Shown here piece after piece: positions 1,784 through 18,709 of a DNA stretch of 24,000 nucleotides. The stretch is from Tepidiphilus sp. J10 (GTDB lineage: Bacteria; Pseudomonadota; Gammaproteobacteria; Burkholderiales; Thiobacillaceae): positions 49,373-73,372 of the forward strand of contig CAMDGQ010000001.1 in the NCBI GenBank assembly GCA_945897955.1, written 5' to 3'. The notes under the pieces are model-generated. The model searched no databases. It saw only the letters and a program-made list of their open reading frames with translations, and had not been told where the DNA came from. Position numbers and translations under genes: made by a program. Position 1 is the stretch's first letter; every line of letters starts with the position of its first letter.

Positions 1784-1809
1784 GTCGGCCGAGCATCCAA
1801 TTCCTGACA
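1784..1809 (-). promoter_or_regulatory. ECF-type promoter copy 1 (TGTCAGGAAT-N12-CGAC), reads leftward toward DUF2934 / debranching enzyme
   Basis: Minus strand 1809->1784 = TGTCAGGAAT tggatgctcggc CGAC. An A/T-rich stretch lies upstream. CGAC ends 55 nt before ATG 1729. Confidence 0.65.
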
Positions 1810-1857
1810 GTAATTTTTCTGGATACAGGCGTTATTGCTCCCGACTTGGTCACTTCA

Positions 1858-2295
1858 TCACGCGCTGAATCGGCCAAGCAGACTGTTCCACCAGCGTTTG
1901 CGATTACCAGGCAGAAGAGTGTCCGTATCGATAGCTTCGGGAGGATCAAGGCTCAATACCCAGCCTGGCTGCACTTTGAAACCACTACTGCCGCAGGTGG
2001 CCCCGAGATTGTTCGGATCGTAGATCTTGACCAGGCTGGGGCCATCCGGCTTGTCGACATAAACAATGCCCAGATAGGCTTCGTCATGCTCCCGGCGCAG
2101 CAAATCGTCGATTTCGAATAGGGTCGCGCGAAAAGCTTCCGGTGCCAACGGCTCACAAGGCACTTCCGCACCCACGGCGTAGGCGTACCAACGACTCTCG
2201 TTTTGCCTCTTCAACTGTCCCAGCAAGGCGTCCCAGTCCGACCAGCGCAACACCCCGAACAGTGGTCCGTTCAATTTGGCGCTAAAGGTATTCAT
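1858..2295 (-). CDS. Hypothetical protein (145 aa), last gene of the thioredoxin operon
   Basis: Complete ORF. Its ATG overlaps the stop of the upstream thioredoxin gene (ATGA at 2292-2295), implying translational coupling. I recognise no family. Confidence 0.6.
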   Translation of the reverse strand: MNTFSAKLNGPLFGVLRWSDWDALLGQLKRQNESRWYAYAVGAEVPCEPLAPEAFRATLFEIDDLLRREHDEAYLGIVYVDKPDGPSLVKIYDPNNLGATCGSSGFKVQPGWVLSLDPPEAIDTDTLLPGNRKRWWNSLLGRFSA

Positions 2296-2690
2296 TGAGC
2301 TTCTCCCCGTAACAGACCCAGAAGCTTGCGCTCGCTCTGGCCGCCCAGTTCCACCCGGCGAATCACCTCCGCCTCCACCAGCACAAAGCTGGGCGTGGCG
2401 GCGATGCTGAAGCCGTGTGCGATCTCGGGTGCTTCAGCGATGTTGATCTTGATCAGGTTGCGATGCGTTGCCCTCAGCCTGTCCACCAGCGGGGTCATGG
2501 CTTTGCAAGGGCCGCAATGAGGCGTGTAAAAATAGTACAACCGGCGCGGGTCGGCGTGCGCATTTCCGTCCACCGCCGAGGTGTCCGGTACCGCCCGACC
2601 TTCAGCCCTCACCGCACGTCGCTCGATGAGAAACTGAATCAGGAAAATCAGAGCAAACAGCACAACAAGAAATGTCAGCGGCCAGGTCAT
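2292..2690 (-). CDS. Membrane-anchored thioredoxin-family protein (CGPC active site)
   Basis: MTWPLTFLVVLFALIFLIQFLI is an N-terminal TM helix. YYFYTPHCGPCKAMTPLVD is a thioredoxin fold with a CGPC motif. Start is moved to ATG 2690 (GGAGAT 4 nt upstream). The track extension to 2870 overlaps the 116-aa gene and looks like a shadow frame. Confidence 0.8.
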   Translation of the reverse strand: MTWPLTFLVVLFALIFLIQFLIERRAVRAEGRAVPDTSAVDGNAHADPRRLYYFYTPHCGPCKAMTPLVDRLRATHRNLIKINIAEAPEIAHGFSIAATPSFVLVEAEVIRRVELGGQSERKLLGLLRGEAQ

Positions 2691-2739
2691 GGCAATCTCC
2701 AAAATGCGTTGCAACTCATTGAGTTCGGATGGCGTGAAT

Positions 2740-3090
2740 TCAATAGCCAAATTCGCCCAGCCACTCGCCCCGGTGGTAGTCGATGGACAGCCAGTGCGGA
2801 ACATAGGGGCGGGGATTGGCGATCGGAAAATCATCCATGGGGGGACTGCCAGGTAGATCGGAAATGGCACAGACCCGGGTCATCACCGGGCGAAAGCGGA
2901 CCGAGAGGCGGTCGGAGACCGATGTTGCTGTCTCCTTGCCCAGCTCCCTGAAGCGCACTCGCTTACGAATCAGGCAGGAAAACAACAGCTCCATTTCGGC
3001 CAACAGCGGCGACTCGCGTTCGGCAAGGGCTCGCGTCGCCCGCGAGCTGAGGCGGATTTCGACGGTTTTGTCGGCAAGTGTGATGTGCAT
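2740..3090 (-). CDS. Hypothetical protein (116 aa), first gene of the thioredoxin operon
   Basis: Complete ORF starting 47 nt downstream of ECF-type promoter copy 2. I recognise no family. Confidence 0.6.
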   Translation of the reverse strand: MHITLADKTVEIRLSSRATRALAERESPLLAEMELLFSCLIRKRVRFRELGKETATSVSDRLSVRFRPVMTRVCAISDLPGSPPMDDFPIANPRPYVPHWLSIDYHRGEWLGEFGY

Positions 3091-3136
3091 CGCGGTTTCC
3101 AGTTCAGACAGTCAGACATCAATTTCACGATGATTG

Positions 3137-3162
3137 GTCGTTCAGAAACTGGATTCCTGACA
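3137..3162 (-). promoter_or_regulatory. ECF-type promoter copy 2, reads leftward toward the 116aa-thioredoxin-145aa operon
   Basis: Minus strand 3162->3137 = TGTCAGGAAT ccagtttctgaa CGAC (then caat). Confidence 0.65.
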
Positions 3163-3262: not shown

Positions 3263-5116
3263 ATGCACCTGCCAGCAAGATTCAGCGGCATTTCCGCGCG
3301 ACTCTATTTCGCCTTTCTTGCGGCTGCCGCGATTCCAGTTGCCATCGCCGGGCTGGTGGGCATTCATTATTCGATTCAGGCCCTGCGCGACCAGACCCTG
3401 ACGCACCTGGACCAGGAGGTCGCCAGCCGGGCGGAAACAGTCGCCCGCTTCATGGAACAACTGGCCAGCGAAGTGTTGTACCTGAGCGCCTCGCCCGCGC
3501 TGGACGAGTGGGTGGAACAGCCGTCCGAAAGTGCCCGGCTGCGTCTGGAGCGCGATCTATCGGTCTTTGCAACGGCGTATCCGTATATCTATCAGGCGCG
3601 TTATCTCGATGTCTCGGGCCGCGAGCGGGTGCGCGTCGACCGTGTCGATCATGCGGTCAATGCTGTCCCCAGCCCGGCTTTGCAGGACAAATCCGACCGC
3701 TATTACTTTCGCGATGCAATGACACTGGCGGCGGGTCAGATTTATGTTTCCCCGCTTGATCTGAACATCGAACATGGCCGGGTGGAAACGCCGGAACGGC
3801 CGGTGATTCGGGTTGCCACGCCGGTCGCCGATGCCAGCGGGGTCAAACGTGGTCTGCTTATCATCAACCTGCACGCGGAACTGTTTCTACGTCAGGTCCA
3901 GCAAATGGCCGAAAGCCATGGCGGCACCGCGTACCTGTTCGATCGGGCCGGTTTTTTCCTGTCGCGATCCGGCCAATCCGCAGTCGAGTCATTCAGGATG
4001 CAGGCCGTCGACGCGCTCGACAGCGCCGTGCCCGGCGCGCTGCTGGCCGAGATTCTGTCAGGCAAACGCGGCGTGGTGGCGGAAGACAGCCAGGTTGTCG
4101 CCTACGCTCCGGTCAGCATGCAACCGATCGCCGGTCACCTGAATTCGCCGCCGCGCGCCTGGGCGCTGGCATTGGCTTACCCGCAAAGCCGCTTTTTCTC
4201 CGCCGTGTTCAATCTATACCTGCTGTATTCCGTCCTGGTCGCCGCGCTGGCGGCAACTGCCATCGCAGGCTGGCTGGTATCGCGCAGTCTGTTGCGGCGA
4301 CTGGTGGACGAACGGCGGGAACAGGATCGGCAATTGTTTCAGCGCGAAAAGATGAACACGTTGGGTGAACTCTCGATGGGCCTGGCGCATGAAATCGGCA
4401 ATCCACTGGCGGGCATGAAAGCGGTGGTGCAGGTGTTGCAGCAGGACGATGCGCCGGATGGATCGTCCAACGCGACGATGCACAAATACCTGCCGAAACT
4501 GGAGAATGAAATCGACCGGCTTTCCAGCTTCCTGCGCACCTTCAATGGTTTCGCCGCCCCCCAGGCGCACCAGCCGATACCTTGCCGATTGGAAGACGTG
4601 CTGGACGATGTGCTGCTCTGGACGCGTAAGGAAGCGCGCGAAAAGGGGATCGAGATTCAGTATCGCCGCTGTGGCAAGGACATCCCGCCGCTACTGGCGG
4701 ACCCGAATCAATTGAAGCAGTTGCTGCTGAATCTGGTCATCAATGCCATCCATGCGATAGACGGGCCCGGCCGTATCACGCTGTCGATGTGCAATTCGCC
4801 ACTCGGCCAGCCCGCCGCGATCTCACAACGGCGGCACATTCACTTTTGCGTCGAGGACGACGGGCCGGGTATCGCCGCTGAAGCCTTGCCGAAAATTTTC
4901 GAACCGTTCTTCACCACACGCCCGAATGGGACAGGTCTGGGATTGGCCGTGGTGAAGAAAATTGCCGATCAGCATGGCGCCACGATCCAGGTGCATACCG
5001 GTCCCAGCGGGCGCGGCAGCCGTTTCGAGCTGGCCTGGCCGGCGGCGGGTATGGACGCGCAGCAACCCGAAGCCGAAGCCTGTGCCGCGAGGCCGACCAT
5101 GAAGGACACCGCATGA
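3263..5116 (+). CDS. Sensor histidine kinase with a large periplasmic Cache-like domain (NtrB/AtoS-type transmitter)
   Basis: Two TM segments (LYFAFLAAAAIPVAIAGLVGI and LYLLYSVLVAALAATAIAGWLV) flank a region of about 270 aa. H-box ELSMGLAHEIGNPL; N-box LLLNLVINAIHA; G1 VEDDGPGI; F IFEPFFTT; G2 GTGLGLAV. The stop overlaps the response-regulator ATG (ATGA). Confidence 0.9.
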   Translation: MHLPARFSGISARLYFAFLAAAAIPVAIAGLVGIHYSIQALRDQTLTHLDQEVASRAETVARFMEQLASEVLYLSASPALDEWVEQPSESARLRLERDLSVFATAYPYIYQARYLDVSGRERVRVDRVDHAVNAVPSPALQDKSDRYYFRDAMTLAAGQIYVSPLDLNIEHGRVETPERPVIRVATPVADASGVKRGLLIINLHAELFLRQVQQMAESHGGTAYLFDRAGFFLSRSGQSAVESFRMQAVDALDSAVPGALLAEILSGKRGVVAEDSQVVAYAPVSMQPIAGHLNSPPRAWALALAYPQSRFFSAVFNLYLLYSVLVAALAATAIAGWLVSRSLLRRLVDERREQDRQLFQREKMNTLGELSMGLAHEIGNPLAGMKAVVQVLQQDDAPDGSSNATMHKYLPKLENEIDRLSSFLRTFNGFAAPQAHQPIPCRLEDVLDDVLLWTRKEAREKGIEIQYRRCGKDIPPLLADPNQLKQLLLNLVINAIHAIDGPGRITLSMCNSPLGQPAAISQRRHIHFCVEDDGPGIAAEALPKIFEPFFTTRPNGTGLGLAVVKKIADQHGATIQVHTGPSGRGSRFELAWPAAGMDAQQPEAEACAARPTMKDTA

Positions 5117-6486
5117 GCAACCGCATCCTGATCGTCGATGACGACGATACCCTGCGCGAAACCCTGGCCGACGTGCTGGCCCGCCACTACGAGGTGGATC
5201 AGGCGGCGGACGCGGCGAGCGCCTTGGCCATCGCCCGCAGTCGTTCATTCGATCTGGTGTTGCTGGATTTGCGCCTGCCCGACGGCAACGGCCTGGAAGT
5301 GTTGCAGCAACTGCACGAAATCGACGAGCGCCTGCTGGTAGTGGTGATGACCGCCTACCCGGAAATTCGCACCGCGGTGACCGCCCTCAAGGCGGGCGCT
5401 TACGATTATCTGAACAAGCCGTTCGATCTGGATGATTTGCGCGGCCTGGTGCGACGCGCGTTGGAAACCCAGCAACTGCGTACCGAGGTGGAGCGGCTGC
5501 GCGCCGCCGTGCCGCCGCTGGCCAATCTGGAAGGCATGATCGGCGCCAGTCCGGCCTTTCTGAGCATGGTGGAAGTCACCCGCCGGATTGCCGCCGCCGC
5601 CCGCACGCCGGTGTTGATCAGCGGCGAATCCGGCACCGGCAAGGAGCGCATCGCGCAGACCATCCACAATCTGTCGAGCCGCGCCGCCGGCCCCTGGGTG
5701 ACATTGAACTGTTCGGCCATCGCCGAAGGTTTGCTGGAATCGGAAATGTTCGGCCACGAAAAGGGCGCGTTCACGCATGCCGTCGCCAGCAAGCGAGGCC
5801 TGCTCGAACTGGCCGACGGCGGCACGTTGTTCCTGGACGAGATCGGCGACCTGTCACCGACGCTGCAACCCAAGCTGCTGCGCGTGATCGAGACCCAGTC
5901 GTTCCGCCGCGTAGGCGGTCAGCGCGAATTGCACGTCGACGTGCGTTTTGTCGCCGCCAGCAACCGTGACTTGAACGAACGCATTCGTCAGGGCCTTTTC
6001 CGTGAAGACTTGTATTACCGCCTGAATGTCGCCGGCATCGACGTGCCGCCCCTGCGCGAGCGGCGCGAGGATATTCCGCAACTGGCGCGGCATTTCCTGG
6101 CCCAGGCCGCCGCAGTGATGGGACTGCAAGTCGTTGATATCGCGCCGCTCGCCGAGACGCGGCTTGCCGCCTATGTCTGGCCTGGCAACGTGCGGGAATT
6201 GCGTAACGTGATGGAGCGCGCCCTGATTCTTTCCGGCGGCGCCAGGATCGAGGCGGAACACTTGCCGAAGGAACTCTGCACCAACGCCGCCTGCCGGTCG
6301 CAGGACGGATCGGCGCTGCCGTTCGCGCTGGCGGACATGGAAAAACTCCATATCGGACGCGTGCTGCGGCATTGCCGCGGCAACAAGACGCATGCCGCCG
6401 CATTGCTGGGCATCACACGGCTGACGTTGCGCAACAAGATTGCGCAGTACGAATTGCTGGAAGGGGCCGAGGAAGGCGAAGCGTAG
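5113..6486 (+). CDS. Sigma-54-dependent response regulator (NtrC family: REC + AAA+ + Fis-type HTH)
   Basis: REC domain (ILIVDDDD..DLVLLDLRLPDGNG..KP). Walker A GESGTGKE; GAFTHA loop; DGGTLFLDEIGDL; WPGNVRELRN; C-terminal HTH AAALLGITRLTLRNKI. Confidence 0.95.
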   Translation: MSNRILIVDDDDTLRETLADVLARHYEVDQAADAASALAIARSRSFDLVLLDLRLPDGNGLEVLQQLHEIDERLLVVVMTAYPEIRTAVTALKAGAYDYLNKPFDLDDLRGLVRRALETQQLRTEVERLRAAVPPLANLEGMIGASPAFLSMVEVTRRIAAAARTPVLISGESGTGKERIAQTIHNLSSRAAGPWVTLNCSAIAEGLLESEMFGHEKGAFTHAVASKRGLLELADGGTLFLDEIGDLSPTLQPKLLRVIETQSFRRVGGQRELHVDVRFVAASNRDLNERIRQGLFREDLYYRLNVAGIDVPPLRERREDIPQLARHFLAQAAAVMGLQVVDIAPLAETRLAAYVWPGNVRELRNVMERALILSGGARIEAEHLPKELCTNAACRSQDGSALPFALADMEKLHIGRVLRHCRGNKTHAAALLGITRLTLRNKIAQYELLEGAEEGEA

Positions 6487-6644
6487 ACCGGTATTCAACC
6501 CGCAAGGGCGTTGCCCTGGCGAAAACCAACCGGCCAGTAATTGACCATTCCGGTTAGTTTCTGACCGGCGCGGACGGCTATTTCATCGCAACGAAAAACG
6601 CTGTGCCTATTTGAAAACAAGGTGTTGGATCAGTTTTTCTCGAT

Positions 6645-6660
6645 TGGCATGCTTGCTGCT
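6645..6660 (+). promoter_or_regulatory. Candidate sigma-54 (-24/-12) promoter for the multiheme cytochrome gene
   Basis: TGGCATgcttgCTGCT compared with the consensus TGGCAC-N5-TTGCW. GG and GC have the correct 12-nt register, with two mismatches. It lies 39 nt upstream of ATG 6699 and directly downstream of a sigma-54 activator gene. Confidence 0.55.
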
Positions 6661-6698
6661 GTTGTCTCGTTGTTTTTTTACGCAGCGAGGGGAATGCC

Positions 6699-8576
6699 AT
6701 GAAGTTTCGTAGCTGGATGTTCAGGTTGATCGGGCTGATTGGTTTGCCCCTGTTTTGCCTCCCCCTGTCCGCCTCGGCGGCCTGGGACGACGACAAGGGC
6801 TGTCTGGCCTGCCACGAGGGTATCGAACGCATCGCCGATACGCCGACCATGAAGGAGTTGTCCTGCACCTTCTGCCACAAGGGCAATGGCGAGGAAGCCA
6901 AGGATGCCAAGGTGGCGCACAAGGGCATGTTCGCCAATCCGGCCGACTTCCGCGTTGCTGACCAGACCTGCGGCATCTGTCACGCCGAGCACTTGGCCAA
7001 CGGCAAGAAATCGCTGCACGCCACCATGGCTGGCATGATCTCCGGTACCCGCTACGGTTTCGGCGCGCAGGATCGCAAGTCCAAGTACGCCACCTATGCC
7101 GTGGACGGCGGCGTCGCCGACCGGCCCGGCGCGCTGCTGAGCCTACTGCAGGTTCCCAAATATGATCCGAAGAAACCGGATAGCGAGACCAACTCCCCCG
7201 GCGACGATTACCTGCGTAACCAGTGCCTGCGCTGCCACCTGTGGAGCGGCGGCGCGCAACAGACCGGCGACGCCCGCGCCAGCGGCTGCGCGGCCTGCCA
7301 CATGGTGTATTCCGACGCCGGCAAGTACACGGGCGGCGACAAGGCCATCGACAAGACCAAGGTCGGTCGGCCCAAGATGCACAAGATCACCACCAAGGTA
7401 CCCGAATATCAGTGTCTGCACTGCCACAACCGGGGCGGTCGCACCGGCGTCTCCTTCATCGGCACCATGGAGAGCGACAACTACGGTTCGCCCTACAAGG
7501 ACGACGGCAGCAAGCAGGGCAGCCTGCACGGCAAGCAATACAACCACCTGACCAAGGACGTGCACTACGAGAAGGGCATGAGTTGCGTCGATTGCCATAC
7601 TTCCCACGATCTGCACGGCGACGGCCGCATCTACGAGAAGAAGGAAAACGCCGTCGAGATTCGCTGCGAGACCTGTCACGGCGACACCAAGAAAGCGGCC
7701 ACCTTCACCACCCTCTGGGGCAACAAGCTGAACAACATCAGCATGAAGAATGGCAAGCCGGTGCTCACGGCCAAACTCACTGGCAAGGAACATCCGGTAC
7801 CGCAGTTGAAGGGCGCCAAGCTGAGCCAGGAAGGCCACACCGCCATGGTCGCCATCCCGAAGCACATGGAGAAACTGGAGTGCTACAGCTGCCACGCCAA
7901 GTGGGCGCCGCAGTGCTATGGATGCCATACCGACCATGACACCGGCAAACCGTCGCGCGACTGGCTGGCGGACGGCAACAATGAAGACCCGTCGAAGAAC
8001 GGCACCATGGGCGCAGTGGGCAATTCCGCCTTCACCTGGAACGAATCGCGCTCCTACCTGCGTTGGGAAACCCCGGTGCTGGGCATTAACGCCAAGGGCA
8101 AGGTGTCGCCGTTCATCCCCGGTTGCCAGGTGGTCTACACCCAGCATGACAGCAAGGAGAAGACCAAGACGGTGAGCAACAAGGTATTCACCACCGTACA
8201 CGGCACCAGCGGCTGGATGCAGAACCCGATCCAGCCCCACACCATTAGCCGATCCGCCCGCACCTGCGCCGATTGCCACATGAGCCGCAAGGCTATCGGC
8301 CTGGGCACCGGCACCTATGACGTCAAGCGCAACTTCCCGGATGGCGGCGGGCCTGACTTCGAGCCGGAACGCATCGTCGATGAGGAAGGCCGCCAACTAC
8401 AGGGCACTACCCACGAAGGCGCGCGGCCCTTCAACAAGGCCGAGCAGCAGCGCATCAGCCGGGTTGGCGCCTGTATCGCCTGCCATGGTTCCGGCAAGGT
8501 GACGCTGCAGAACAAGGCACCGACGGACGAACTGCATACCAAGGCGATCCGTTCTTACCTGAACAAGAAGAAGTGA
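6699..8576 (+). CDS. Secreted multiheme c-type cytochrome (12 CXXCH motifs)
   Basis: Signal peptide MKFRSWMFRLIGLIGLPLFCLPLSASA/AW. CXXCH sites: CLACH, CTFCH, CGICH, CLRCH, CAACH, CLHCH, CVDCH, CETCH, CYSCH, CYGCH, CADCH, CIACH. RBS GAGGGG lies 6 nt upstream. Confidence 0.9.
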   Translation: MKFRSWMFRLIGLIGLPLFCLPLSASAAWDDDKGCLACHEGIERIADTPTMKELSCTFCHKGNGEEAKDAKVAHKGMFANPADFRVADQTCGICHAEHLANGKKSLHATMAGMISGTRYGFGAQDRKSKYATYAVDGGVADRPGALLSLLQVPKYDPKKPDSETNSPGDDYLRNQCLRCHLWSGGAQQTGDARASGCAACHMVYSDAGKYTGGDKAIDKTKVGRPKMHKITTKVPEYQCLHCHNRGGRTGVSFIGTMESDNYGSPYKDDGSKQGSLHGKQYNHLTKDVHYEKGMSCVDCHTSHDLHGDGRIYEKKENAVEIRCETCHGDTKKAATFTTLWGNKLNNISMKNGKPVLTAKLTGKEHPVPQLKGAKLSQEGHTAMVAIPKHMEKLECYSCHAKWAPQCYGCHTDHDTGKPSRDWLADGNNEDPSKNGTMGAVGNSAFTWNESRSYLRWETPVLGINAKGKVSPFIPGCQVVYTQHDSKEKTKTVSNKVFTTVHGTSGWMQNPIQPHTISRSARTCADCHMSRKAIGLGTGTYDVKRNFPDGGGPDFEPERIVDEEGRQLQGTTHEGARPFNKAEQQRISRVGACIACHGSGKVTLQNKAPTDELHTKAIRSYLNKKK

Positions 8577-10302: not shown

Positions 10303-10359
10303 GGGAAATCTCCTGTTGAGTAATGAACCGTTCGTTCCAGATTGGCTAAAAAAAGGGGG

Positions 10360-10671: not shown

Positions 10672-11265
10672 TCAGTCCAGCGCCTTCAGCACCATGCTGA
10701 TGATCCCCTGCAGCGTGGCCGCATCAGCGCCGGCCTTGGCTTGGGTTTTCAAGCCACTCATGCTGCTGACCAGGAAGTTGGCCAGCATTTGCGCATCGCG
10801 TTCTGGCGGGATGTCGCCTTCTCGCTGGGCGCGTTCAACCGCAGCCCGCAACACGTTGCGGAAGCGTTCGATGCTGTGCGCCACATCCTGTGCGATCTCG
10901 GGATCGCTCTGGGCGAATTCACTGGCGGTATTCATCACCAGACAGCCGCGCGGTTGCGCCTGGCCGCTGACATCGTTCAGCACCGAATTGAGGAAGCCCT
11001 CAATGAATTTGCGGCCGCTGGGCGCGCCGGACAATCCATCGCGCAGCATCTGGGTGAATTGATCGGCGTAACGCGCCACACATTGCCTGAACAATTGCTG
11101 CTTGCCGCCGAACGCCTGATACAGGCTGCTTTTGGACAGATTCATCGTCGCCAGCAAGTCCTGCATCGAAGTGGATTCATAGCCTTTCGACCAGAATTGA
11201 TGCATCGCGGCATCAAGCGCGAGGTCGGGGTCGAATTCGAGAGGTCGTCCAATGTTTGCAGCCAT
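10672..11265 (-). CDS. TetR/AcrR family transcriptional regulator
   Basis: GRPLEFDPDLALDAAMHQFWSKGYESTSMQDLLATMNLSKSSLYQAFGGK is a TetR N-terminal HTH. Start is chosen at ATG 11265 (MAANIGRP), the usual distance from the HTH. The track start at 11370 (ATGA with the cytochrome c stop) remains possible. Confidence 0.85.
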   Translation of the reverse strand: MAANIGRPLEFDPDLALDAAMHQFWSKGYESTSMQDLLATMNLSKSSLYQAFGGKQQLFRQCVARYADQFTQMLRDGLSGAPSGRKFIEGFLNSVLNDVSGQAQPRGCLVMNTASEFAQSDPEIAQDVAHSIERFRNVLRAAVERAQREGDIPPERDAQMLANFLVSSMSGLKTQAKAGADAATLQGIISMVLKALD

Positions 11266-11271
11266 AAGGTA

Positions 11272-11295
11272 TTTGTGGACCATACGGTTCACAAA
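11272..11295. promoter_or_regulatory. 24-bp near-perfect palindrome, candidate TetR operator
   Basis: TTTGTGGACCAT|ACGGTTCACAAA has 10 of 12 positions symmetric. It lies 7 nt upstream of the preferred TetR start. Confidence 0.4.
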
Positions 11296-11366
11296 GTCAA
11301 AGAAAATCTGGCGGCTTGCAACAGGCATGGCTTGTGTCGCAGCACAGTGGGCGGCATCCGACAGCA

Positions 11367-11978
11367 TCAAGGCTGGCGCCTGAAGCTGCCGACGTAATAG
11401 GTCAGATCCGCCGCTTCCCGGGTCCCCGTGGCCAGCGGTTTGCCCTTGAGGAACATTGCCACGCAGTTGTTCTGCATCTCGGTCTGGGTGATGACCCGGC
11501 CGTTGAGCGGCTTGTAGCTCGGGTAACGTTGCGCCACGTCGAGCAACGATGGGATGGCGACCTCATGTTCGCCGATACCGACCTTGCCGCCTGCCGTGCC
11601 GCCATTGGGATGGCAAGCCGCGCAATTGAGGCCGCTGGTGCCCAGACGCGAATCGTTGAACAACGCTTGGCCGCGCGCCAGGGCGTTTTGCTCTCCCTGG
11701 CGCATGGCTGTCATGCGTTCGCTTTCGTTCAACTTCATGAAGCGATCCATGTTGGCCAGCATGTCCGGCGATGCCGCATCGCTGAAATTGTGAACACTAG
11801 CGCCACTGCCATAGTGGGTGGGATAGTTCAGCCAGGGGTTGTTGGTGGGGTTGGCAGGGCGTGGTGTCGGCGTTCCAGGGCCATTGACGATGAATCCGGC
11901 GCTGAACGCCGGTAGCCCGACCATAGCGAGCACGACACAAAGCAGGCGTTGCGAAAAAATTTTGGCATAGGTTGGCAT
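11367..11978 (-). CDS. Secreted monoheme c-type cytochrome
   Basis: Signal peptide MPTYAKIFSQRLLCVVLAMVGLPAFSA and a single CAACH site. Start is moved to ATG 11978 (GGAGAT 5 nt upstream), because the track start at 12113 lies upstream of promoter copy 3. Confidence 0.8.
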   Translation of the reverse strand: MPTYAKIFSQRLLCVVLAMVGLPAFSAGFIVNGPGTPTPRPANPTNNPWLNYPTHYGSGASVHNFSDAASPDMLANMDRFMKLNESERMTAMRQGEQNALARGQALFNDSRLGTSGLNCAACHPNGGTAGGKVGIGEHEVAIPSLLDVAQRYPSYKPLNGRVITQTEMQNNCVAMFLKGKPLATGTREAADLTYYVGSFRRQP

Positions 11979-12027
11979 GATTGATCTCCATCGGTTTCGC
12001 CCAGGAAAAATCAGGCGCTGATGTTGA

Positions 12028-12053
12028 GTCGTCGCTCGCTTGAATTCCTGACA
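12028..12053 (-). promoter_or_regulatory. ECF-type promoter copy 3, reads leftward toward the cytochrome c gene
   Basis: Minus strand 12053->12028 = TGTCAGGAAT tcaagcgagcga CGAC (then tcaa). CGAC ends 50 nt before ATG 11978. Confidence 0.65.
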
Positions 12054-12162: not shown

Positions 12163-12759
12163 ATGAGCGACAGCATTCTGGGTTCACCGGAGACCTGGTT
12201 GGATGAGCATGGCGCCGCGCTCTACAAATATGCGCTGGTGCATACCCGCGACCAGCACAAGGCCGAGGAAGCGGTGCAGGAAACCTTGCTCGCCGCTTTG
12301 CAGGCACGCGACCGATTTTCCGGTGGCGCATCCGCACGCACCTGGCTGATCGGCATCCTCAAGCACAAGATCATCGATATGTTCCGGCACGACGCGCGCG
12401 AGGTACAACTGGACGACCCGGACGAACTAGCCGATGCGGATGAAATGCAGGATACCGACAACTTTGCGTCTGACGGACACTGGCAACACAAGTTGTCCGA
12501 TTGGGGCAATCCGCAAGAATTGCTGGAACGCGGCCAATTCATGATCATCCTGCAACGCTGCATGGATGCCTTGCCACCGCGACTGGCGCGACTTTTCCTG
12601 TTGCGCGAGGTGATGGAAGAAAATACTGAAAACATTTGTCAGGAATTGGCGATAACGCCGACCAACCTGTGGACGATGCTGTATCGGGCCCGTTTGGGGC
12701 TCCGGCAGTGTCTCGACAGAAATTGGGTTGGCAACGCAATGCAGGCTGCCCGGAGGTGA
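12163..12759 (+). CDS. ECF (sigma-70 group IV) RNA polymerase sigma factor
   Basis: Region 2 EEAVQETLLAALQARDRF..TWLIGILKHKIIDMFRH. Region 4 LPPRLARLFLLREVMEENTENICQELAITPTNLWTMLYRARLGLRQCL. Start is at ATG 12163 (GAGGAG 7 nt upstream); the track start at 12130 is a TTG. Confidence 0.9.
   Translation: MSDSILGSPETWLDEHGAALYKYALVHTRDQHKAEEAVQETLLAALQARDRFSGGASARTWLIGILKHKIIDMFRHDAREVQLDDPDELADADEMQDTDNFASDGHWQHKLSDWGNPQELLERGQFMIILQRCMDALPPRLARLFLLREVMEENTENICQELAITPTNLWTMLYRARLGLRQCLDRNWVGNAMQAARR
12637..12662 (+). promoter_or_regulatory. ECF-type promoter copy 4, internal to the sigma gene, reads rightward toward the anti-sigma and GGDEF/EAL genes
   Basis: TGTCAGGAAT tggcgataacgc CGAC (then caac), embedded in the codons for ICQELAITPTN. 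CGAC ends 104 nt before ATG 12766. Confidence 0.6.
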
Positions 12760-12765
12760 ATGAAG

Positions 12766-13041
12766 ATGCTGACATGCAAGGATGCAAGCCACTTGATCTC
12801 GGAGAGTCAGGAACGCCGATTGGGTTTCCGGGAACGCTGGGGTTTGCGGATGCATCTCTGGATGTGCGTCAGTTGCAGTCGCTTCGAGCGGCAGATGGCC
12901 TTCATGCGGCAAGCTCTGCGGATGCTGGGCAAGCGTGCCGAGGACGAGACTGACAGCAGCGGATTCCCCCCCGAGTCGCGTGAACGTATCCGCAAGGCGT
13001 TGGCTGAGCGGGACAAGCAAACCCACGATCATCCCCATTGA
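12766..13041 (+). CDS. Soluble zinc-finger (ZAS-type, HxxxCxxC) anti-sigma factor
   Basis: HLWMCVSC is an H-x3-C-x2-C motif, and there is an upstream Cys (MLTCKD). No TM segment is present. The gene directly follows the ECF sigma gene, with GGAGG 9 nt upstream of ATG 12766 (12760 is also possible). Confidence 0.8.
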   Translation: MLTCKDASHLISESQERRLGFRERWGLRMHLWMCVSCSRFERQMAFMRQALRMLGKRAEDETDSSGFPPESRERIRKALAERDKQTHDHPH

Positions 13042-13108: not shown

Positions 13109-15382
13109 ATGCCCAGGCGGAATCGTTATTACATCCTCGGCGTATATGCCTTGTTGCTGGCATTGAGCGCCGGATTCTCGATCAAGATATACCACGACAG
13201 CCGTGCGCTTTACGGCGAAACCGTGGCGTTGATCGAGCAGGATCTACCCATCCTTGGCAGCCTTTCCAACCTGCGTGCCAACGTCGTGGCGCAGGAGCCC
13301 ATTCTTTACGAGTACTACGCCACCACCGACCGCGCGCGTTTTCGCCAGCGCTGGCAAGGCAATCGGCAGCTTGTTGCCGAACTGGGCACCAAGATTCGCC
13401 GGGACTTCCCGGGGCATCCGCGTTTGCTCGTGGTCGATGACCTCAACCGAGAGGTCGATGCCCTTTCTCTGGAGCTGGATCGATTACTCGGCGCCAAGCC
13501 GGTCGATTGGGATGAGGCGCGCGCCCTGCTGGAGGAAATCAGCCTGCACGCGGTGGAGATCAACGCCAACCTGGACAGGCTGGCCGAGGATGTGCACGGT
13601 CGCGTCGACAGCAAGGCTAGCGCCGCACAAATGCGCGTCGACACGATCAACTGGACGGCGCTTTTCTATAGCGGCGCAATGTTTCTGCTGGCCATCGCCG
13701 CCGGCTACTTGATCAATAGTTATCTTGCCGGCGCGCGTGAGCGCCGGCGTCTGGCCATGTTCGCCGAGCGTAACCCGAACCCCGTCATGAATCTCGACGC
13801 CGCAGGTGGCGTGCTGTATGCCAACCCGGCCGCACATTCGACGCTGGCCACCTTGGGATACAACGCTGGCCCGCTTACTCTGTTGTTGCCATCGGACATG
13901 CCTGCGCGGCTGGAGAGCATGCTCACCGAGGGGCTGGCAACCCGCCAATGGAATTACACCGCACTGGGGCGGGAATACGAAACGACGCTCCAATATCTGC
14001 AGGATTTCGAGTACTTCAATGCCTATCTGGTCGATGTCAGCGGACGCAAGGAAGCTGAACGGCGCATGGAATATCTGGCCGAACACGATCCCTTGACCGA
14101 TCTGCCCAACCGCCGCCGTTTTATCGAGGATATCCGCCGGGAAATCGCCAATGGAAGGTTGGGGGCTGTCGTTTTGCTCAGCATCGACCGTCTGCGGGCC
14201 ATTGTCGATGGTGTCGGTCATGGCGTCGCGGATCAACTTTTGCAGGCTGTTGCCCAGCGTTTGCTGCGTTCGCTGGCGGATTGCACCGACCAATGCTCGA
14301 ACGCGCATCTTTACCGATTCGAGGGCGCGGTATTTGGTCTGTTGCTGCCCTGTCTGGAAACGGAACAGACACCGGAACAGATCACGCGAAAGATCGCGCG
14401 TGATTTCGAGTCACCCATCCATGCAGATAACCAGGCTTTCTTTCTCGGGGTGAGCATCGGTGCCAGTTTGTTCCCCACCGATGATGGCGACGCGGTCAAT
14501 CTGATCAGCCATGCCGACCGCGCATTGCAACAGGTCAAACAACGCGGTGGCGGCGGGTATCGTGCCTATGACCGGGACTTGTCGATCCAGGCCGCCGAGC
14601 GGCTTGCGCTGGAAGGCGATCTCCGCCACGCGCTTGAACGTAAGGAACTGTTCATTCAGTACCAACCGCAGGTGGAGGTGGCGAGCATGCGCATCGTCGG
14701 CGTGGAGGCTTTGCTGCGCTGGCGGCATCCAACCCGGGGACTGATCTCGCCGGCCCAATTCATCCCGCTCGCCGAAGCGTCCGGCCTCATCGTGCCGATC
14801 GGTGCCTGGGTGCTGGAAACGGCGTGTGCCCAAGCGCAAGCCTGGCATACGACAGGTCTGCCCCGCATCACCATGGCAATCAATCTTTCCGCCCGCCAGT
14901 TCGCCACCGAAGATTTGGCAAGGGACATTGCGCAAGTCCTGAGCCAAACTGGGCTGCCGCCGCAATTCCTGGAACTTGAAGTCACCGAAAGCATGGCGAT
15001 GGATGATGTGGAACGCTCAATCAGGATATTGCGTGCAATGAAAGACCTCGGCGCTTGTATCTCGATCGACGATTTCGGTACCGGTTATTCCTCACTGGCT
15101 TACCTGCGCCGTCTGCCCATCGACAAGCTCAAGGTGGACCAGTCCTTTGTGAGGAATCTGGAAAACGATCCCGGTGATGCGGCCCTGGTTCTCAGCGTGG
15201 TGCAACTGGGGCATAGCCTGAACCTGAGCGTCATCGCCGAAGGCGTCGAGACGCTGGGGCAACTGGAATTCCTGCGCGGTACGGGGTGCGAAGAAATCCA
15301 GGGCTATTACTTCAGCCGCCCACTCGACAGTGCTGCACTGGAAACCCTGCTTGGCAGCGGCATCGCGGCATTTCAAGCGTGA
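13109..15382 (+). CDS. Membrane sensor protein: periplasmic helical domain - PAS - degenerate GGDEF - EAL (probable c-di-GMP phosphodiesterase)
   Basis: TM helices YYILGVYALLLALSAGFSI and LFYSGAMFLLAIAAGYLI. In the GGDEF domain the signature reads RFEGAVFGLLL (GGDEF replaced by EGAVF). The EAL domain appears intact (VEALLRW, DDFGTGYSSL, KVDQSF, AEGVET, QGYYFSRP). Start is ATG 13109 or GTG 13106, after AAGGAG. The track extension to 12935 overlaps the anti-sigma gene. Confidence 0.9.
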   Translation: MPRRNRYYILGVYALLLALSAGFSIKIYHDSRALYGETVALIEQDLPILGSLSNLRANVVAQEPILYEYYATTDRARFRQRWQGNRQLVAELGTKIRRDFPGHPRLLVVDDLNREVDALSLELDRLLGAKPVDWDEARALLEEISLHAVEINANLDRLAEDVHGRVDSKASAAQMRVDTINWTALFYSGAMFLLAIAAGYLINSYLAGARERRRLAMFAERNPNPVMNLDAAGGVLYANPAAHSTLATLGYNAGPLTLLLPSDMPARLESMLTEGLATRQWNYTALGREYETTLQYLQDFEYFNAYLVDVSGRKEAERRMEYLAEHDPLTDLPNRRRFIEDIRREIANGRLGAVVLLSIDRLRAIVDGVGHGVADQLLQAVAQRLLRSLADCTDQCSNAHLYRFEGAVFGLLLPCLETEQTPEQITRKIARDFESPIHADNQAFFLGVSIGASLFPTDDGDAVNLISHADRALQQVKQRGGGGYRAYDRDLSIQAAERLALEGDLRHALERKELFIQYQPQVEVASMRIVGVEALLRWRHPTRGLISPAQFIPLAEASGLIVPIGAWVLETACAQAQAWHTTGLPRITMAINLSARQFATEDLARDIAQVLSQTGLPPQFLELEVTESMAMDDVERSIRILRAMKDLGACISIDDFGTGYSSLAYLRRLPIDKLKVDQSFVRNLENDPGDAALVLSVVQLGHSLNLSVIAEGVETLGQLEFLRGTGCEEIQGYYFSRPLDSAALETLLGSGIAAFQA

Positions 15383-15393: not shown

Positions 15394-16131
15394 TTACGTT
15401 GGCCGTGAAACCAGGTGCAGGTGCTGGGTCGTAGATTGCATCGCAGGCGAAATCTCTGTTTGTGGCTGATAGCTGAAGCGAACGCTCTGCCGTTCGCGCG
15501 ACATCTCGATGCGGGCAATGCTGTGGGTGCAGGCGTCCGGACGTGACATGCGGATGCCGGCGGCGGCATTGTCGCCACGGTGTTCATGGAAGGTAGCCAG
15601 TTGTTCGACGCTGGCCGACGCCATGTCGCCCACATCCCGGGCAAATGTGGCCAAACGCTGGCTGGCGATGACCTCGGGTTGATATGACGAGGTGGTCAGC
15701 AGGCAGCCCTCGGCGGCCAATTGTGTCGAAGTGGCATCGATGCCGTCCCAGGTCAGCAGGCTGGCCTGCGACGCATCGGCGGCAATCAGATGAAACGGCG
15801 GCACATCGTCCAGCCGTCGCGTTGCAATACGCTTGATCGCCGTCTCTACATCCAGGCAGTCGGCAGCGTGATGCGGCAACCAGCCGCGTGAGGCGGGATG
15901 AGTTGGGGCCAGACGCATTGCCGTTGCATGGTTGAGCAGAGCCAGGCTGAGCCCGTGTTCATTGACCAGCAGCCAGGTGCCGCCGCGCGCAGTATCGGTC
16001 GGTGCCAGATAGCGCACGCCGTTCGCTTCGAACGCGCGCGGTGGTAGCGCGACGGGCCGGCTGCGCTGTTCGTCGCGATTGAAGAACAGCACATAGCCGG
16101 TATCCAGGGGCTTCCAGGTCAGCGTACACAT
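15394..16131 (-). CDS. NRDE family (TANGO2-like) protein
   Basis: N-terminal MCT..FFNRDE signature. The start overlaps the end of the upstream DinB-like gene by 13 nt. Confidence 0.75.
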   Translation of the reverse strand: MCTLTWKPLDTGYVLFFNRDEQRSRPVALPPRAFEANGVRYLAPTDTARGGTWLLVNEHGLSLALLNHATAMRLAPTHPASRGWLPHHAADCLDVETAIKRIATRRLDDVPPFHLIAADASQASLLTWDGIDATSTQLAAEGCLLTTSSYQPEVIASQRLATFARDVGDMASASVEQLATFHEHRGDNAAAGIRMSRPDACTHSIARIEMSRERQSVRFSYQPQTEISPAMQSTTQHLHLVSRPT

Positions 16132-16649
16132 GTTGACGCTTTCACGGCAGTGTCGATTTCCTTGCGGAAAACCAGCGTGGAAGGCGCGACACCAAACGTC
16201 GCATCGACGTCAATGCCCTGTATGCGACAGAGAATCGCGATGATGGCGTAGTGATGGACGCTATGGCTGCAGAGAAAGCCCAGCTCGCGTTCCGGCGAGG
16301 TGGCGGTTTCGATTGCATCGCTCGAATCATCGATACGCGTGCGCAACGGACCGATGTCGCCGGGTGTAATGGCAGTCAGTTCCTGCCGCAGTCGCTTGAA
16401 CAAATCGAGCGCCGCGTCACGCTGCTGCTCGATGCGCGGATCGCGTAGCCGCGCGGCGTAATCGATGCAACCGCTTTGCAGTCCATCGAGAAAACTGGCG
16501 TAGTGATCGAGATTGTGTCGGATATGGGCGCCGATGCTGCCGCCGAATACAAGCGCTACGTTGCGTGTGTAATCGGCATCGCTGATGCGCTGTAGTAGTG
16601 CTTCGCCCTGTTGCAGGGTAACGATGTTGCGCTGGATCAAATCGAACAT
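16119..16649 (-). CDS. DinB-like (four-helix-bundle metal-binding) superfamily protein
   Basis: His-rich motifs IRHNLDHY and HSVHHYA. Start is at ATG 16649 (MFDLIQ..), which overlaps the stop of the acyltransferase gene by 13 nt. The track extension to 16937 is a shadow frame inside the upstream gene. Confidence 0.65.
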   Translation of the reverse strand: MFDLIQRNIVTLQQGEALLQRISDADYTRNVALVFGGSIGAHIRHNLDHYASFLDGLQSGCIDYAARLRDPRIEQQRDAALDLFKRLRQELTAITPGDIGPLRTRIDDSSDAIETATSPERELGFLCSHSVHHYAIIAILCRIQGIDVDATFGVAPSTLVFRKEIDTAVKASTCVR

Positions 16650-18433
16650 GACTGCGCCGCCGTCCTGGAAGTATTGAAGGCAGCGTAGGCTGCAGCGCCT
16701 TCGCCGAGAAAGGTGGCCAACTGCTTTTCCGGCAGCGCATCCATGTCCACCGAAAGCAGCAGGCCGGGCGTGGCGTTGAAGTTGGGGTCGACGCCGACGC
16801 AATGAAAGCGGGCGCCGAGCTTGTGATAGTGCTTCAGCAACACTGGCGTATCTTTGCCTTCGGCATCCAGTCCACGCACACAGGCGGACAGCGTCTGCAA
16901 ATCGAAACGCCCTTTTCCGGCGCGATAGTCGAGCCATTCCGGATGCGGCACATGCTGCAGCGGATGCCGTGGGCGCACATGCGGCGAAGGTTCGATCAGC
17001 GCATCGCAGATCAGCGCGATCACTGCTTCGTCATATTGCCGCGACAACGATACCGTGCCGTACAGACGGCGATATTGCGGATGCGCTACCAGATAGCGGC
17101 CGATGCCCTGCCACAGCAGGTAAAGCGCATGAAAACTCTTCTGGTGCTCCGGCACGACGAAAGAACGTCCGAGTTCCAGGGCGGGCGGCATTTCATCGTA
17201 GAAGGCGGCATCGAATTCGAACATCTGGGCGAGATACATACCGCGCGGACCATTTTCCTGGCGCAAGCGGTCGGACTGGCCCAAACGATAAGCGCCGACC
17301 AGTGACTGCGCCACGTTGTCCCAGACGAAAAGCTGGACGTAGCTGTGGTCGTAAGCGTCGCCGTCGCGCGGCTGGCCGCTGCCTTCGTCATAGAGCCGGA
17401 AGACCCGCTCGCGTTCGCGGGCGATATCGTCCTGCAGCAGCGGGATCTGCGCAGCGCGGGCGTGGAAAACGGAGAAATGCTTGAAGTCGAGCAGCCGCTG
17501 TGCGGCGGGCAACGTGGCGATCTCGCCGACGATGCGCTCGCGCTGGCCAAGCGTCGCCAGCGGTAGCAGATTGCCGGCCAGCGTGGGCGGTGCCATGTGC
17601 GGTTCTGCGTGGTGTGCAGCAAGCGAAGGTTCCAGCAGGTAAGTCATCAGGCGCGCATAACGTGTTAGCGCCGCCGCATCCATGCCGCGCCAGACCTCCG
17701 GCGCAATTGCATGGCCGACATGGAATTCGATTCGTCGACCGCGCATGCGCAGGAACTCGCGCGGCAACATCAGCAGCTTGGAGCGATCCCAGATTTTGCC
17801 CAGCGTCTGGAACAGGCGGCTGTTCGCGCCTTCAAAGAACACCGGCAAAATCGCCGCCTCATGCCGCAGCGCAAGGTGTCCGACCAGCCGATTCCAGGCC
17901 GCGTCGCGAATGCGATCTTCGCCACGCGGGCTGAACGACACCTTGCCGGCCGGGAAGATCACCAGCACGCCTCCGCTGCCGAGATGGGCTGAGCAGGCCC
18001 GAATCGAAACGAGATTTTTCTGGCTGGTCTTGAGCGGATTGGTGGCGATGAACAGTGGCGCCAATTCAGCAAATACGTTCAATCCTGCATTGGCGAGAAT
18101 TTTGATGTCAGTGCGGATGCCTCGCAGACTTTGCGCCAGCGCCAGCGCCTCGACGCCGCCGAGCGGGTGATTGCAGACCACGATCAGCGGCCCCCGCACC
18201 GGGATTTGCTTGGCAAGATCACCCGGTTCATGCGCGATGGTCAAAGCCAGCGCCGAAAGCGTGCGTTCGACGAAGTCGAACGGCGGCAACGCGCGCAATC
18301 GATTCTGCCGGTAAAGCCGGTTCAAGCGATGGATGCCGAGCAAGCGGTCGAATAGTGGCGCGACAAACCCAAACCAGGCTGGGGCGTGTTTGGGAACAGC
18401 TGCGCGCAGGCTGATGCTGGATTCATTCAACAT
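16637..18433 (-). CDS. Bifunctional acyltransferase: N-terminal PlsC/OlsA-like O-acyltransferase + C-terminal OlsB/hemolysin-like N-acyltransferase (OlsF-like aminolipid synthase)
   Basis: The N-terminal half has the lysophospholipid-acyltransferase block VVCNHPLGGVEAL (HX4-acidic) and VIFPAGKVS. The C-terminal half (YDHSYVQLFVWDN..LVGAYRLGQ..LELGRSFV..YLLWQGI) resembles OlsB-type GNAT-like N-acyltransferases. Start is ATG 18433 or GTG 18448. Confidence 0.75.
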   Translation of the reverse strand: MLNESSISLRAAVPKHAPAWFGFVAPLFDRLLGIHRLNRLYRQNRLRALPPFDFVERTLSALALTIAHEPGDLAKQIPVRGPLIVVCNHPLGGVEALALAQSLRGIRTDIKILANAGLNVFAELAPLFIATNPLKTSQKNLVSIRACSAHLGSGGVLVIFPAGKVSFSPRGEDRIRDAAWNRLVGHLALRHEAAILPVFFEGANSRLFQTLGKIWDRSKLLMLPREFLRMRGRRIEFHVGHAIAPEVWRGMDAAALTRYARLMTYLLEPSLAAHHAEPHMAPPTLAGNLLPLATLGQRERIVGEIATLPAAQRLLDFKHFSVFHARAAQIPLLQDDIARERERVFRLYDEGSGQPRDGDAYDHSYVQLFVWDNVAQSLVGAYRLGQSDRLRQENGPRGMYLAQMFEFDAAFYDEMPPALELGRSFVVPEHQKSFHALYLLWQGIGRYLVAHPQYRRLYGTVSLSRQYDEAVIALICDALIEPSPHVRPRHPLQHVPHPEWLDYRAGKGRFDLQTLSACVRGLDAEGKDTPVLLKHYHKLGARFHCVGVDPNFNATPGLLLSVDMDALPEKQLATFLGEGAAAYAAFNTSRTAAQSCSI

Positions 18434-18563
18434 GTTGCACAACACCAAGCCGGCGGCATCGGTACTTCACCATCGTATCCGCATTTTTTTGCTTGTTTGG
18501 CGATTTCATCGCTATCTCCAGGGACGTTGATTGCACAGACCGAGTTTTCGTCAGTGCAAATTA

Positions 18564-18589
18564 GTCGCTGCACACGCGGATTCCTGACA
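18564..18589 (-). promoter_or_regulatory. ECF-type promoter copy 5, reads leftward toward the acyltransferase operon
   Basis: Minus strand 18589->18564 = TGTCAGGAAT ccgcgtgtgcag CGAC (then taat). Confidence 0.65.
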
Positions 18590-18683
18590 CCTATTTATTC
18601 CTTGAACTGCAAGGACTCGCACAAGACGCCATCGAGTTGAAGAGAGGCCTTCAAACAGGGATGAAAAATTTCTTGAAAATTAT

Positions 18684-18709
18684 TGTCAGGAATTGACGTG
18701 TGCGCCGAC
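18684..18709 (+). promoter_or_regulatory. ECF-type promoter copy 6, reads rightward toward the RiPP precursor operon
   Basis: TGTCAGGAAT tgacgtgtgcgc CGAC (then caaa). CGAC ends 100 nt before ATG 18809. Confidence 0.65.

Follow-up and report, generated by a model that had tools for sequence, protein, structure and literature searches.

The closest described relatives of the system analysed here are the extracytoplasmic function (ECF) sigma factors sigmaE of Neisseria and RpoE2 of Haemophilus influenzae, a group that was termed ECF13 (PMC7907618) and that has been merged into ECF293 (PMC7826278). In Neisseria, NMB2140-2145 code for a DoxX-like protein, three hypothetical proteins, the sigma factor (rpoE) and MseR, an anti-sigma factor of the zinc-associated (ZAS) type; the sigmaE promoter has the consensus GTMAGBWTT (-35), a spacer of 12-13 nt and CGTCTAAH (-10), with transcription starting at an A six nucleotides past the -10 and an A/T-rich region upstream (Hopman et al. 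2010, PMC2893595). The hvf/DoxX cluster depends on sigmaE in Neisseria (PMC2893595) and on RpoE2 in H. influenzae, where RpoE2/HrsE is needed for the hypochlorite induction of msrAB and of the DoxX/DUF692/DUF2063 cluster (PMC7907618). Here we have analysed a stretch of 24,000 nt from Tepidiphilus sp. J10 (contig CAMDGQ010000001.1, positions 49,373 to 73,372), the whole of which we call the window, and which contains six exact copies of the pattern TGTCAGGAAT-N12-CGAC together with one ECF sigma gene (12163-12759). Very probably, RNA polymerase uses all six as promoters when it carries this sigma factor. A first-pass annotation, made from the letters alone, had proposed such a regulon and had placed the copies correctly, at 1784-1809(-), 3137-3162(-), 12028-12053(-), 12637-12662(+), 18564-18589(-) and 18684-18709(+); the sigma gene is indeed the only sigma-like sequence in the window, and the proposal is now supported by the strict spacing and orientation of the copies, by their conservation upstream of orthologous targets in other genomes and by the homology to Neisseria sigmaE/MseR. 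The sites, extended to the complete -10 block, and the sigma/anti-sigma pair are given below; the predicted starts follow the rule of the Neisseria sigmaE promoter (about 6 nt past the 8-nt -10 block).

Site 1, 1780-1809 (-): -35 TGTCAGGAAT at 1809-1800, 12-nt spacer, -10 CGACCTAC at 1787-1780, predicted start ~1774.
Site 2, 3133-3162 (-): -35 at 3162-3153, -10 CGACCAAT at 3140-3133, predicted start ~3127.
Site 3, 12024-12053 (-): -35 at 12053-12044, -10 CGACTCAA at 12031-12024, predicted start ~12018.
Site 4, 12637-12666 (+): -35 at 12637-12646, -10 CGACCAAC at 12659-12666, predicted start ~12672.
Site 5, 18560-18589 (-): -35 at 18589-18580, -10 CGACTAAT at 18567-18560, predicted start ~18554.
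Site 6, 18684-18713 (+): -35 at 18684-18693, -10 CGACCAAA at 18706-18713, predicted start ~18719.
Sigma gene, 12163-12759 (+): ECF sigma factor of 198 aa (Pfam Sigma70_r2 and r4_2), the proposed reader of the six sites.
Anti-sigma gene, 12760-13041 (+): ZAS anti-sigma factor of 93 aa (Pfam zf-HC2), its start codon abutting the sigma stop codon.

The sigma factor contains regions 2 and 4 only, scores 201.7 against TIGR02943 (cutoff 162.2) and is 39% identical over 163 aa to Neisseria sigmaE (BLASTP, E=6e-34; locus L205, L-numbers denoting here and below the retrieved loci or contigs). A search of the PDB with it returned distant ECF sigmas, e.g., SigL, and no solved structure of a family member. 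The anti-sigma carries the zinc motif C6-x25-H32-x3-C36-x2-C39, which fits C/H-x23-26-H-x3-C-x2-C, scores 75.5 against NF052368 “antisigmaE” (cutoff 50) and is 31% identical to MseR (E=1e-9) with the Cys and the His-x3-Cys-x2-Cys in register; by eye, it has no evident membrane segment. The arrangement is thus that of Neisseria sigmaE (Ecf, NMB2144/NGO1944) and MseR (NMB2145), a homologous sigma with a homologous small cytoplasmic zinc anti-sigma directly downstream, and it also resembles H. influenzae RpoE2, of the same ECF13 group as Neisseria SigE and likewise provided with a small ZAS peptide anti-sigma, HrsE. By these homologies, the pair in the window is a member of the Neisseria sigmaE/H. 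influenzae RpoE2 family. Its local regulon would be the larger one, with six units in the window alone against a very small regulon in Neisseria (the operon and msrAB). No msrAB gene was seen within the window. The targets of RpoE2 include, unlike those found here, msrAB, a DMT (drug/metabolite) transporter and mtsZ; its inducer is hypochlorite and no promoter motif has been defined for it.

The likeness extends to the promoters. Starting from the NGO1945 fragment of PDB 3DEE we reached the Neisseria protein and from it the contigs, in which the gene order is DoxX, a 102-aa precursor, MNIO, DUF2063, sigma and anti-sigma. Upstream of doxX these loci carry GTCAGTTTT-N12-CGTCTAA, equal in layout to GTCAGGAAT-N12-CGACCAA in the window, that is, a 9-nt -35 starting GTCAG/GTAAG, a spacer of 12-13 nt and a -10 of the form CG(T/A)C(T/C)AA. 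Compared with the published consensus, GTCAGGAAT matches at 8/9 positions and CGACCAAN at 6/8, so that the layout and most bases agree without being identical. For the elements in the window we prefer the notation -35 GTCAGGAAT and -10 CGACCAA, separated by 12 nt. GGAAT as an AAC-type -35 core was rejected: it stands 12 nt from CGAC, less than ECF promoters usually require, and in the Neisseria logo the entire 9-nt block is the -35 element. The cluster of DoxX, precursor peptide, MNIO (DUF692) and DUF2063, in the window a putative target, is shared as well. In these Neisseria contigs NGO1945/HvfC was called in two pieces (L205 6503-7248, 158 + 71 aa; L207 6052-6731, 100 + 125 aa), through either real frameshifts or artefacts of assembly and gene calling.

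The copies had originally been likened to the promoters of Bacillus subtilis SigW and Caulobacter SigF. The ECF layout stands, and the SigF consensus given there (GTAACC-N16-CGAA) is correct, but the nearest model is Neisseria sigmaE/H. influenzae RpoE2 instead. In Caulobacter crescentus, SigF/NrsF (ECF16), the regulator of bufferin operons, is similar in that an ECF sigma controls a DUF2282/DUF692/DUF2063/DoxX operon for a metal-binding peptide of the RiPP type (ribosomally made, post-translationally modified), and in that the SigF sensor is cysteine-dependent; it is unlike in its anti-sigma (NrsF/DUF1109, with six membrane helices, against a soluble ZAS protein of 93 aa), its promoter and its precursor type. 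Membership in ECF16 was rejected, the anti-sigma being a zf-HC2 protein of 93 aa and the motif not GTAACC-N16-CGAA, and SigF/NrsF would be a functional analogy from a different family. A further likeness is with SigR/RsrA (ECF12) of Streptomyces coelicolor, where the thiol redox switch is likewise a soluble ZAS anti-sigma and the targets include genes of the thioredoxin type. Both the ECF group and the phylum are different, SigR recognizes GGAAT-N18-GTT, and sigR, unlike the sigma gene in the window, has an upstream SigR-dependent promoter.

The six sites and their conservation

A pattern scan of both strands found exactly six exact matches to TGTCAGGAAT-N12-CGAC in the window and none in 100 dinucleotide-preserving shuffles. 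When up to three mismatches were allowed a single extra match appeared, at 7653-7678(-) and with three mismatches (the shuffles gave a mean of 1.86 such matches), and a relaxed scan of the window with spacers of 11-13 nt and the extended -10 yielded no additional site. Aligned from 70 nt upstream to 100 nt downstream, the copies have conserved columns that end at the motif boundaries, with the exception of C/T-A-A after CGAC, which is mostly shared though it lies outside the search pattern. All six sites share a spacer length of 12 nt, and the motif is asymmetric, bipartite and non-palindromic. All copies are oriented toward a start codon, five being intergenic and one (12637-12662) located within the sigma gene. 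As had been claimed before, every copy aims at a start codon, the distance from CGAC being 46-99 nt, or 130 nt in the case of the OlsF-like start; the A/T-rich stretch said to precede the copies is also real, with 69% A+T in the 15 nt upstream of the five intergenic sites vs. 40% in the window. A full-text literature search for TGTCAGGAAT returned unrelated primers and oligonucleotides only.

To follow the sites into other genomes we used loci around sigma orthologues of 44-95% identity, collected by protein similarity, and an exact-pattern scan of 596 Gb of genome contigs, which gave at least 120 exact matches, most of them chance singletons, as expected for 14 bases. Orthologous sites were found before the cytochrome and hvfA genes in L121, before the glycogen debranching enzyme gene in L122, and before a cytochrome-like gene and DUF2934 (13-nt spacer) in L124, while L067, a Thiobacillaceae contig that came from the pattern scan, has copies before the gene of a 116-aa protein and before DUF2934. 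At the orthologous promoters of L067 and L124 the motif is kept at 14/14 positions, the spacers at 1-3/12 and the remaining flank at 13-17/46 (for site 2 and its counterpart in L067, 14/14, 2/12 and 17/46), i.e., the spacer and flank matches are random.

Among the matches listed, several lie in or beside homologous sigma or hvf genes of Ralstonia, Burkholderiaceae, Ignavibacteriae and Planctomycetota, those within homologous sigma genes belonging to Ralstonia and to metagenome-assembled genomes (MAGs) of Burkholderiaceae, Proteobacteria and Ignavibacteriae. Also among the matches listed are copies preceding HvfA-like cysteine-rich peptides that adjoin hvfB (L055), a pair of small secreted peptides of which one bears cysteine (L024), and a protein judged by eye to be DUF1223-like (L031). 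The A/T-rich Ignavibacteriae MAG (L094) has the exact motif twice, at 3322(-) and 3748(-), one copy inside the sigma homologue and the other between the anti-sigma gene and a Met-rich membrane protein. Conservation of the promoter sequence thus extends over different phyla and different base compositions. The distant relatives L143 and L144 carry GTAAGG...CG(A/T)CTAA upstream of the sigma gene, and L131, with a sigma 63% identical to ours, has GTAAGGTTT-N12-CGACCAA at 10711, after the anti-sigma gene, and a sigma gene without any copy of the motif. These forms bridge the window's motif and the Neisseria promoter. In L131, moreover, two anti-sigma-like genes with the promoter between them occupy 10182-11096, and the match to hvfB is broken into three, a sign of possible frameshifts or decay.

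The copy inside the sigma gene

Site 4 coincides with codons C159-N168 of the sigma gene, in the helix-turn-helix of region 4 (ICQELAITPTN), 97 nt before the anti-sigma start. It had been described as the site of the anti-sigma and GGDEF/EAL genes; its position upstream of the anti-sigma gene stands, and the description has to be amended in that the site is intragenic, within the sigma coding sequence. The motif is present at the same codons in orthologues of 54-95% identity, in several of them exactly. We examined the variability of synonymous positions in a codon alignment of 17 orthologues, with a permutation test; the test is not biased by the motif, because the orthologues were gathered by protein similarity. 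Synonymous variation is at its minimum for the gene within the motif (in TGT, CAG and GAA and at the third position of codon 166), with a minor-codon fraction of 0.045 against a gene mean of 0.283 (permutation p=3e-4), and the two lowest four-codon runs of the gene fall in codons 159-163. The spacer codons 164-165 vary freely. Two of the codons used, TGT and TTG, are minority codons in the genes of the window (32% and 20%). Residue 166 is P, S, A or T across the orthologues and its codon is always NCG, so that CGAC is preserved.

The distribution of the copy among relatives points in the same direction. Their commonest gene architecture is sigma, anti-sigma, hvfA, hvfB, hvfC and doxX, with hvfA-hvfB-hvfC-doxX directly after the sigma/anti-sigma pair in at least eight of them, and in L122, L126, L127, L130, L133, L135, L136 and L137 the intragenic copy is the sole motif upstream of anti-sigma-hvfABC-doxX. 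Relatives that lack it have a copy elsewhere, either upstream of the sigma gene or operon (L143, L144, L101 and Neisseria) or after the anti-sigma gene (L131).

One could argue that site 4, alone among the six, is a by-product of the coding for ICQELAITPTN and goes unused as a promoter, the other five being real. The peptide is indeed conserved and most motif bases fall at non-synonymous positions, the Neisseria sigmaE gene has no internal copy, and some of the synonymous conservation could have another cause. We nevertheless find this unlikely. Coding for the peptide does not account for motif synonymous sites that are the least variable in the gene next to freely varying spacer codons, for the use of minority codons, for an NCG kept under four different residues, or for the eight or more relatives in which anti-sigma-hvfABC-doxX is preceded by no other motif; nor does it account for the relatives that lack the intragenic copy and carry one in a different place. 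[quoted passage not shown] The parallel with RpoE6/EcfR6 (ECF26) lies in the sigma-dependent promoter within the sigma open reading frame (ORF) that drives the anti-sigma gene; the S. meliloti system belongs to an unrelated ECF group, has a membrane-bound anti-sigma and uses the motif GGAATA...GT. What would then set the present system apart is an intragenic promoter on which selection acts at the DNA level.

Other readings of the motif and the origin of the copies

Several observations weigh against the reading of the six sites as promoters of the local sigma. Neither in the window nor in relatives of 54-95% identity (10-kb flanks) is the sigma gene preceded by a motif, so the classic self-promoter argument for sigma-site pairing is not available. 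The -10 element differs at two positions from that of Neisseria (CGACCAA vs. CGTCTAA), and the -35 has GGAAT where Neisseria has GTTTT/GGTT. Identity at 14 positions in six sites is stricter than usual for promoters, something for which an ancient duplication (pairs 4/6 and 1/5) accounts only in part. Finally, the matches in Ralstonia and other genomes are not independent statistics, because they were found by searching for the motif.

Since the upstream motif is missing, the sigma gene is apparently not positively autoregulated. In Neisseria, unlike the window, the promoter stands upstream of doxX and sigma and anti-sigma are the last genes of the operon, so the sigma is positively autoregulated there. 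H. influenzae RpoE2 autoactivates only weakly, which resembles the situation in the window, and positive autoregulation is therefore not a defining trait of the family.

The missing self-promoter also leaves room for a second alternative, namely that the sites are ECF-type promoters read by another sigma encoded outside the window (e.g., a paralogue), the local one being a bystander or one of several readers. ECF paralogues with overlapping specificity are known, for example, in the ECF26 group of S. meliloti (PMC6180224). We judge this explanation improbable: in many genomes, targets with the motif are found in synteny with the sigma/anti-sigma pair, the motif is found inside this very sigma gene and under DNA-level selection, and the promoter read by the Neisseria homologue of the sigma is laid out in the same way.

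Even less probable, in our opinion, is that the motif is an operator for a DNA-binding regulator other than a sigma factor, e.g., the TetR-family protein encoded beside the sigma gene. This TetR gene is conserved next to the sigma gene in relatives, and 10 contiguous bp would make a rather long -35 element. However, operators of the TetR type are as a rule palindromes, and the motif is bipartite and non-palindromic (which is why we rejected a palindromic operator), with a fixed orientation to the downstream gene and at promoter distance from it. Moreover, the sigmaE promoter of Neisseria, mapped or predicted, has this layout at a locus without a TetR gene, and copies of the motif occur in other loci lacking TetR, e.g., L094 and L101.

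Part of the set did arise by duplication. With the 14 specified positions excluded, the flanks of most pairs of sites are 22-36% identical, whereas sites 4 and 6 share 56% and sites 1 and 5 share 47%. The region upstream of hvfA (18647-18790(+)) aligns over ~110 nt with the 3′ end of the sigma gene (12600-12745(+)), and does likewise in L121. The hvfA promoter thus appears to be a decayed duplicate of the intragenic sigma promoter, which fits a sigma-gene fragment that would have carried the promoter along as the GGDEF-EAL and OlsF-like genes parted hvf from sigma/anti-sigma. Along similar lines, we read site 5 as a duplicated DUF2934 promoter and 5′ end, since it shares 47% of its flanking bases with site 1, above the background of 22-36%. 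Between site 5 and the OlsF-like gene, and overlapping the start of the latter, there is a 28-codon upstream ORF (MKSPNKQKNADTMVKYRCRRLGVVQHVE, 18427-18510(-)), whose first codons (MKSPNKQKNADT...) and ribosome-binding site are closely like those of the DUF2934 gene at 1729; site 5 and this ORF may be the relic of a duplicated DUF2934 promoter and 5′ end, or the ORF may be a leader peptide. In both pairs the flanks have diverged by ~45-50% and the 14 bases of the motif have remained perfect, which indicates selection.

The same figures leave practically nothing of the possibility that the copies are a dispersed repeat (a repetitive extragenic palindrome, REP, a miniature inverted-repeat transposable element, MITE, or similar) or recent segmental duplications with no regulatory role, since the related flanks of the two pairs (4/6 and 1/5), which do show that some copies arose by duplication, are ~45-50% diverged around a perfect motif, the other pairs are at the 22-36% background with different spacers, terminal inverted repeats are absent, as is any longer conserved unit (conservation is limited to 14 (+3) positions), and orthologous sites elsewhere keep the motif only. 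With flanks unrelated outside those two pairs, no inverted ends and every copy in the window aimed at a gene start, these are not REP or MITE elements.

We lean, with some reserve, towards a more detailed version of the promoter reading, in which this clade has its promoter in the region-4 codons of the sigma gene, those for the helix-turn-helix with which the protein recognizes the -35 element, where synonymous selection would keep it, and uses it as the primary and often the only promoter of the anti-sigma and the HvfA operon, in a circuit with negative feedback only; the regulon would have grown by duplication of promoter-bearing fragments, the hvfA promoter being a relic of the sigma 3′ end and the OlsF-like one a relic of the DUF2934 promoter and 5′ end.

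Downstream genes and the proposed circuit

The gene map was drawn from Pfam and NCBIfam searches and from inspection of gene junctions, and gives five units on two strands in addition to site 4. The genes originally listed as targets do lie behind the six sites, with the additions of a TetR gene to the cytochrome unit and of DinB_2 and TANGO2 genes to the OlsF-like unit.

Site 1 unit, 1-1729 (-): DUF2934 (1729-1514) and glycogen debranching enzyme (from 1514, past the window edge); Pfam.
Site 2 unit, 1858-3090 (-): 116-aa protein, thioredoxin-like protein (Pfam Thioredoxin) and 145-aa protein.
Site 3 unit, 10672-11978 (-): c-type cytochrome (weak SoxA/TsdA-like match) and TetR-family regulator; Pfam, NCBIfam.
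Site 5 unit, 15394-18510 (-): 28-aa upstream ORF, OlsF-like bifunctional acyltransferase, DinB_2 and TANGO2; Pfam.
Site 6 unit, 18809-21340 (+): hvfA (EGKCG-repeat precursor), hvfB (MNIO), hvfC (DUF2063) and doxX; NCBIfam, Pfam DoxX.
GGDEF-EAL gene, 13109-15382 (+): Pfam; start backed by the gene call in the orthologous locus L121.

The site 6 unit is the conserved core of the proposed targets. Its three hvf products score above the equivalog cutoffs of their models (HvfA, NF050188, 120 vs. 95; HvfB, NF003818, 421 vs. 360; HvfC, NF050145, 253 vs. 142), and HvfC matches PDB 3DEE (E=1.8e-9). The HvfA precursor (18809-19225(+)) carries five double EGKCG repeats (KAKEGKCGEGKCGG...) behind a signal peptide, and by its sequence it would be a long precursor of an oxazolin-type copper-binding peptide. 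The unit has what characterizes hvfA/oxazolin RiPP operons, i.e., an EGKCG-repeat precursor with a signal peptide, HvfB and HvfC. Site 6 stands 99 nt upstream of hvfA, and in relatives the hvf cluster adjoins sigma/anti-sigma.

As for the other units, the DUF2934 stop and the start of the debranching enzyme overlap in a TGATG junction. Neither the 116-aa (2740-3090(-)) nor the 145-aa protein (1858-2295(-)) of the site 2 unit matched a Pfam or NCBIfam family; the trio they form with the thioredoxin-like protein is syntenic, together with its promoter, in the Thiobacillaceae MAG L067. In the site 3 unit the cytochrome stop and the TetR start also overlap as TGATG, and a second regulator, TetR, probably belongs to the regulon because its gene overlaps the stop codon of the motif-bearing cytochrome gene. 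The TetR, CMD/AhpD-like and DsrE_2 genes are syntenic with the sigma gene in relatives. The OlsF-like protein scores 321 against the OlsF model, under the equivalog cutoff of 620. The GGDEF-EAL gene is a possible downstream member of the site 4 unit, presumably through co-transcription with the anti-sigma. A consensus scan of the window for sigma-70 promoters and terminators gave none above the shuffle level, including a promoter for the sigma gene itself, and a tRNA scan of the window found none.

Other genes of the window carry no motif. Between the motif-driven units, a dCache histidine kinase, a sigma-54-dependent response regulator and a 625-aa multihaem cytochrome (3263-8576(+)) seem to be a separate regulatory module. 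The region 21400-23400 has a low gene density, with a phage-type exonuclease (22539-23285(-); phrog_7838, E=8e-64) beside small ORFs that belong to no family, and may be a prophage remnant adjoining the hvf operon. A gene for a DsbC/DsbG-like disulfide isomerase (23411-23998(+)), running past the right window edge and with no motif upstream, suits the theme of envelope redox.

From the comparisons above we infer a scheme for transcription initiation, for the pairing of sigma and sites, and for the inducing signal. With its region 4 the sigma would contact the -35 block GTCAGGAAT, and with its region 2 the CGAC(C/T)AA located 12 bp downstream, transcription starting ~6 nt after the 8-nt -10 block. 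The small cytoplasmic ZAS anti-sigma would hold the sigma until inactivated by a thiol-reactive oxidant, possibly of the hypochlorite type, or by metal stress, in analogy with MseR, HrsE and RsrA. Once free, the sigma would induce the operon for the HvfA copper-binding peptide and the thioredoxin-like operon, as well as the cytochrome-TetR unit, DUF2934 with the debranching enzyme and the OlsF-like lipid-remodelling unit. At site 4, free sigma would yield extra anti-sigma (plus GGDEF-EAL) and no extra sigma; as site 4 would raise the anti-sigma without the sigma, the feedback would be negative only, without the positive loop of Neisseria.

Site 4 would in this respect be a clean example of codons selected for two roles at once, and of an ECF circuit that lacks positive feedback, and the recoding or transplanting of these sigma genes for synthetic circuits must take it into account. 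The regulation of HvfA/oxazolin copper peptides would be tied to the sigma/anti-sigma module used in Neisseria and Haemophilus, and the thioredoxin-like operon, the cytochrome-TetR unit, DUF2934 with the debranching enzyme, the OlsF-like lipid synthase and the cyclic di-GMP (c-di-GMP) enzyme are candidate new members of its regulon. They suggest that defence of the envelope against redox or metal stress is coupled to the remodelling of membrane lipids and of carbon storage. The six sites provide a precise, testable regulon for a widespread and little-studied ECF family in environmental Betaproteobacteria of the sulfur-oxidiser type.

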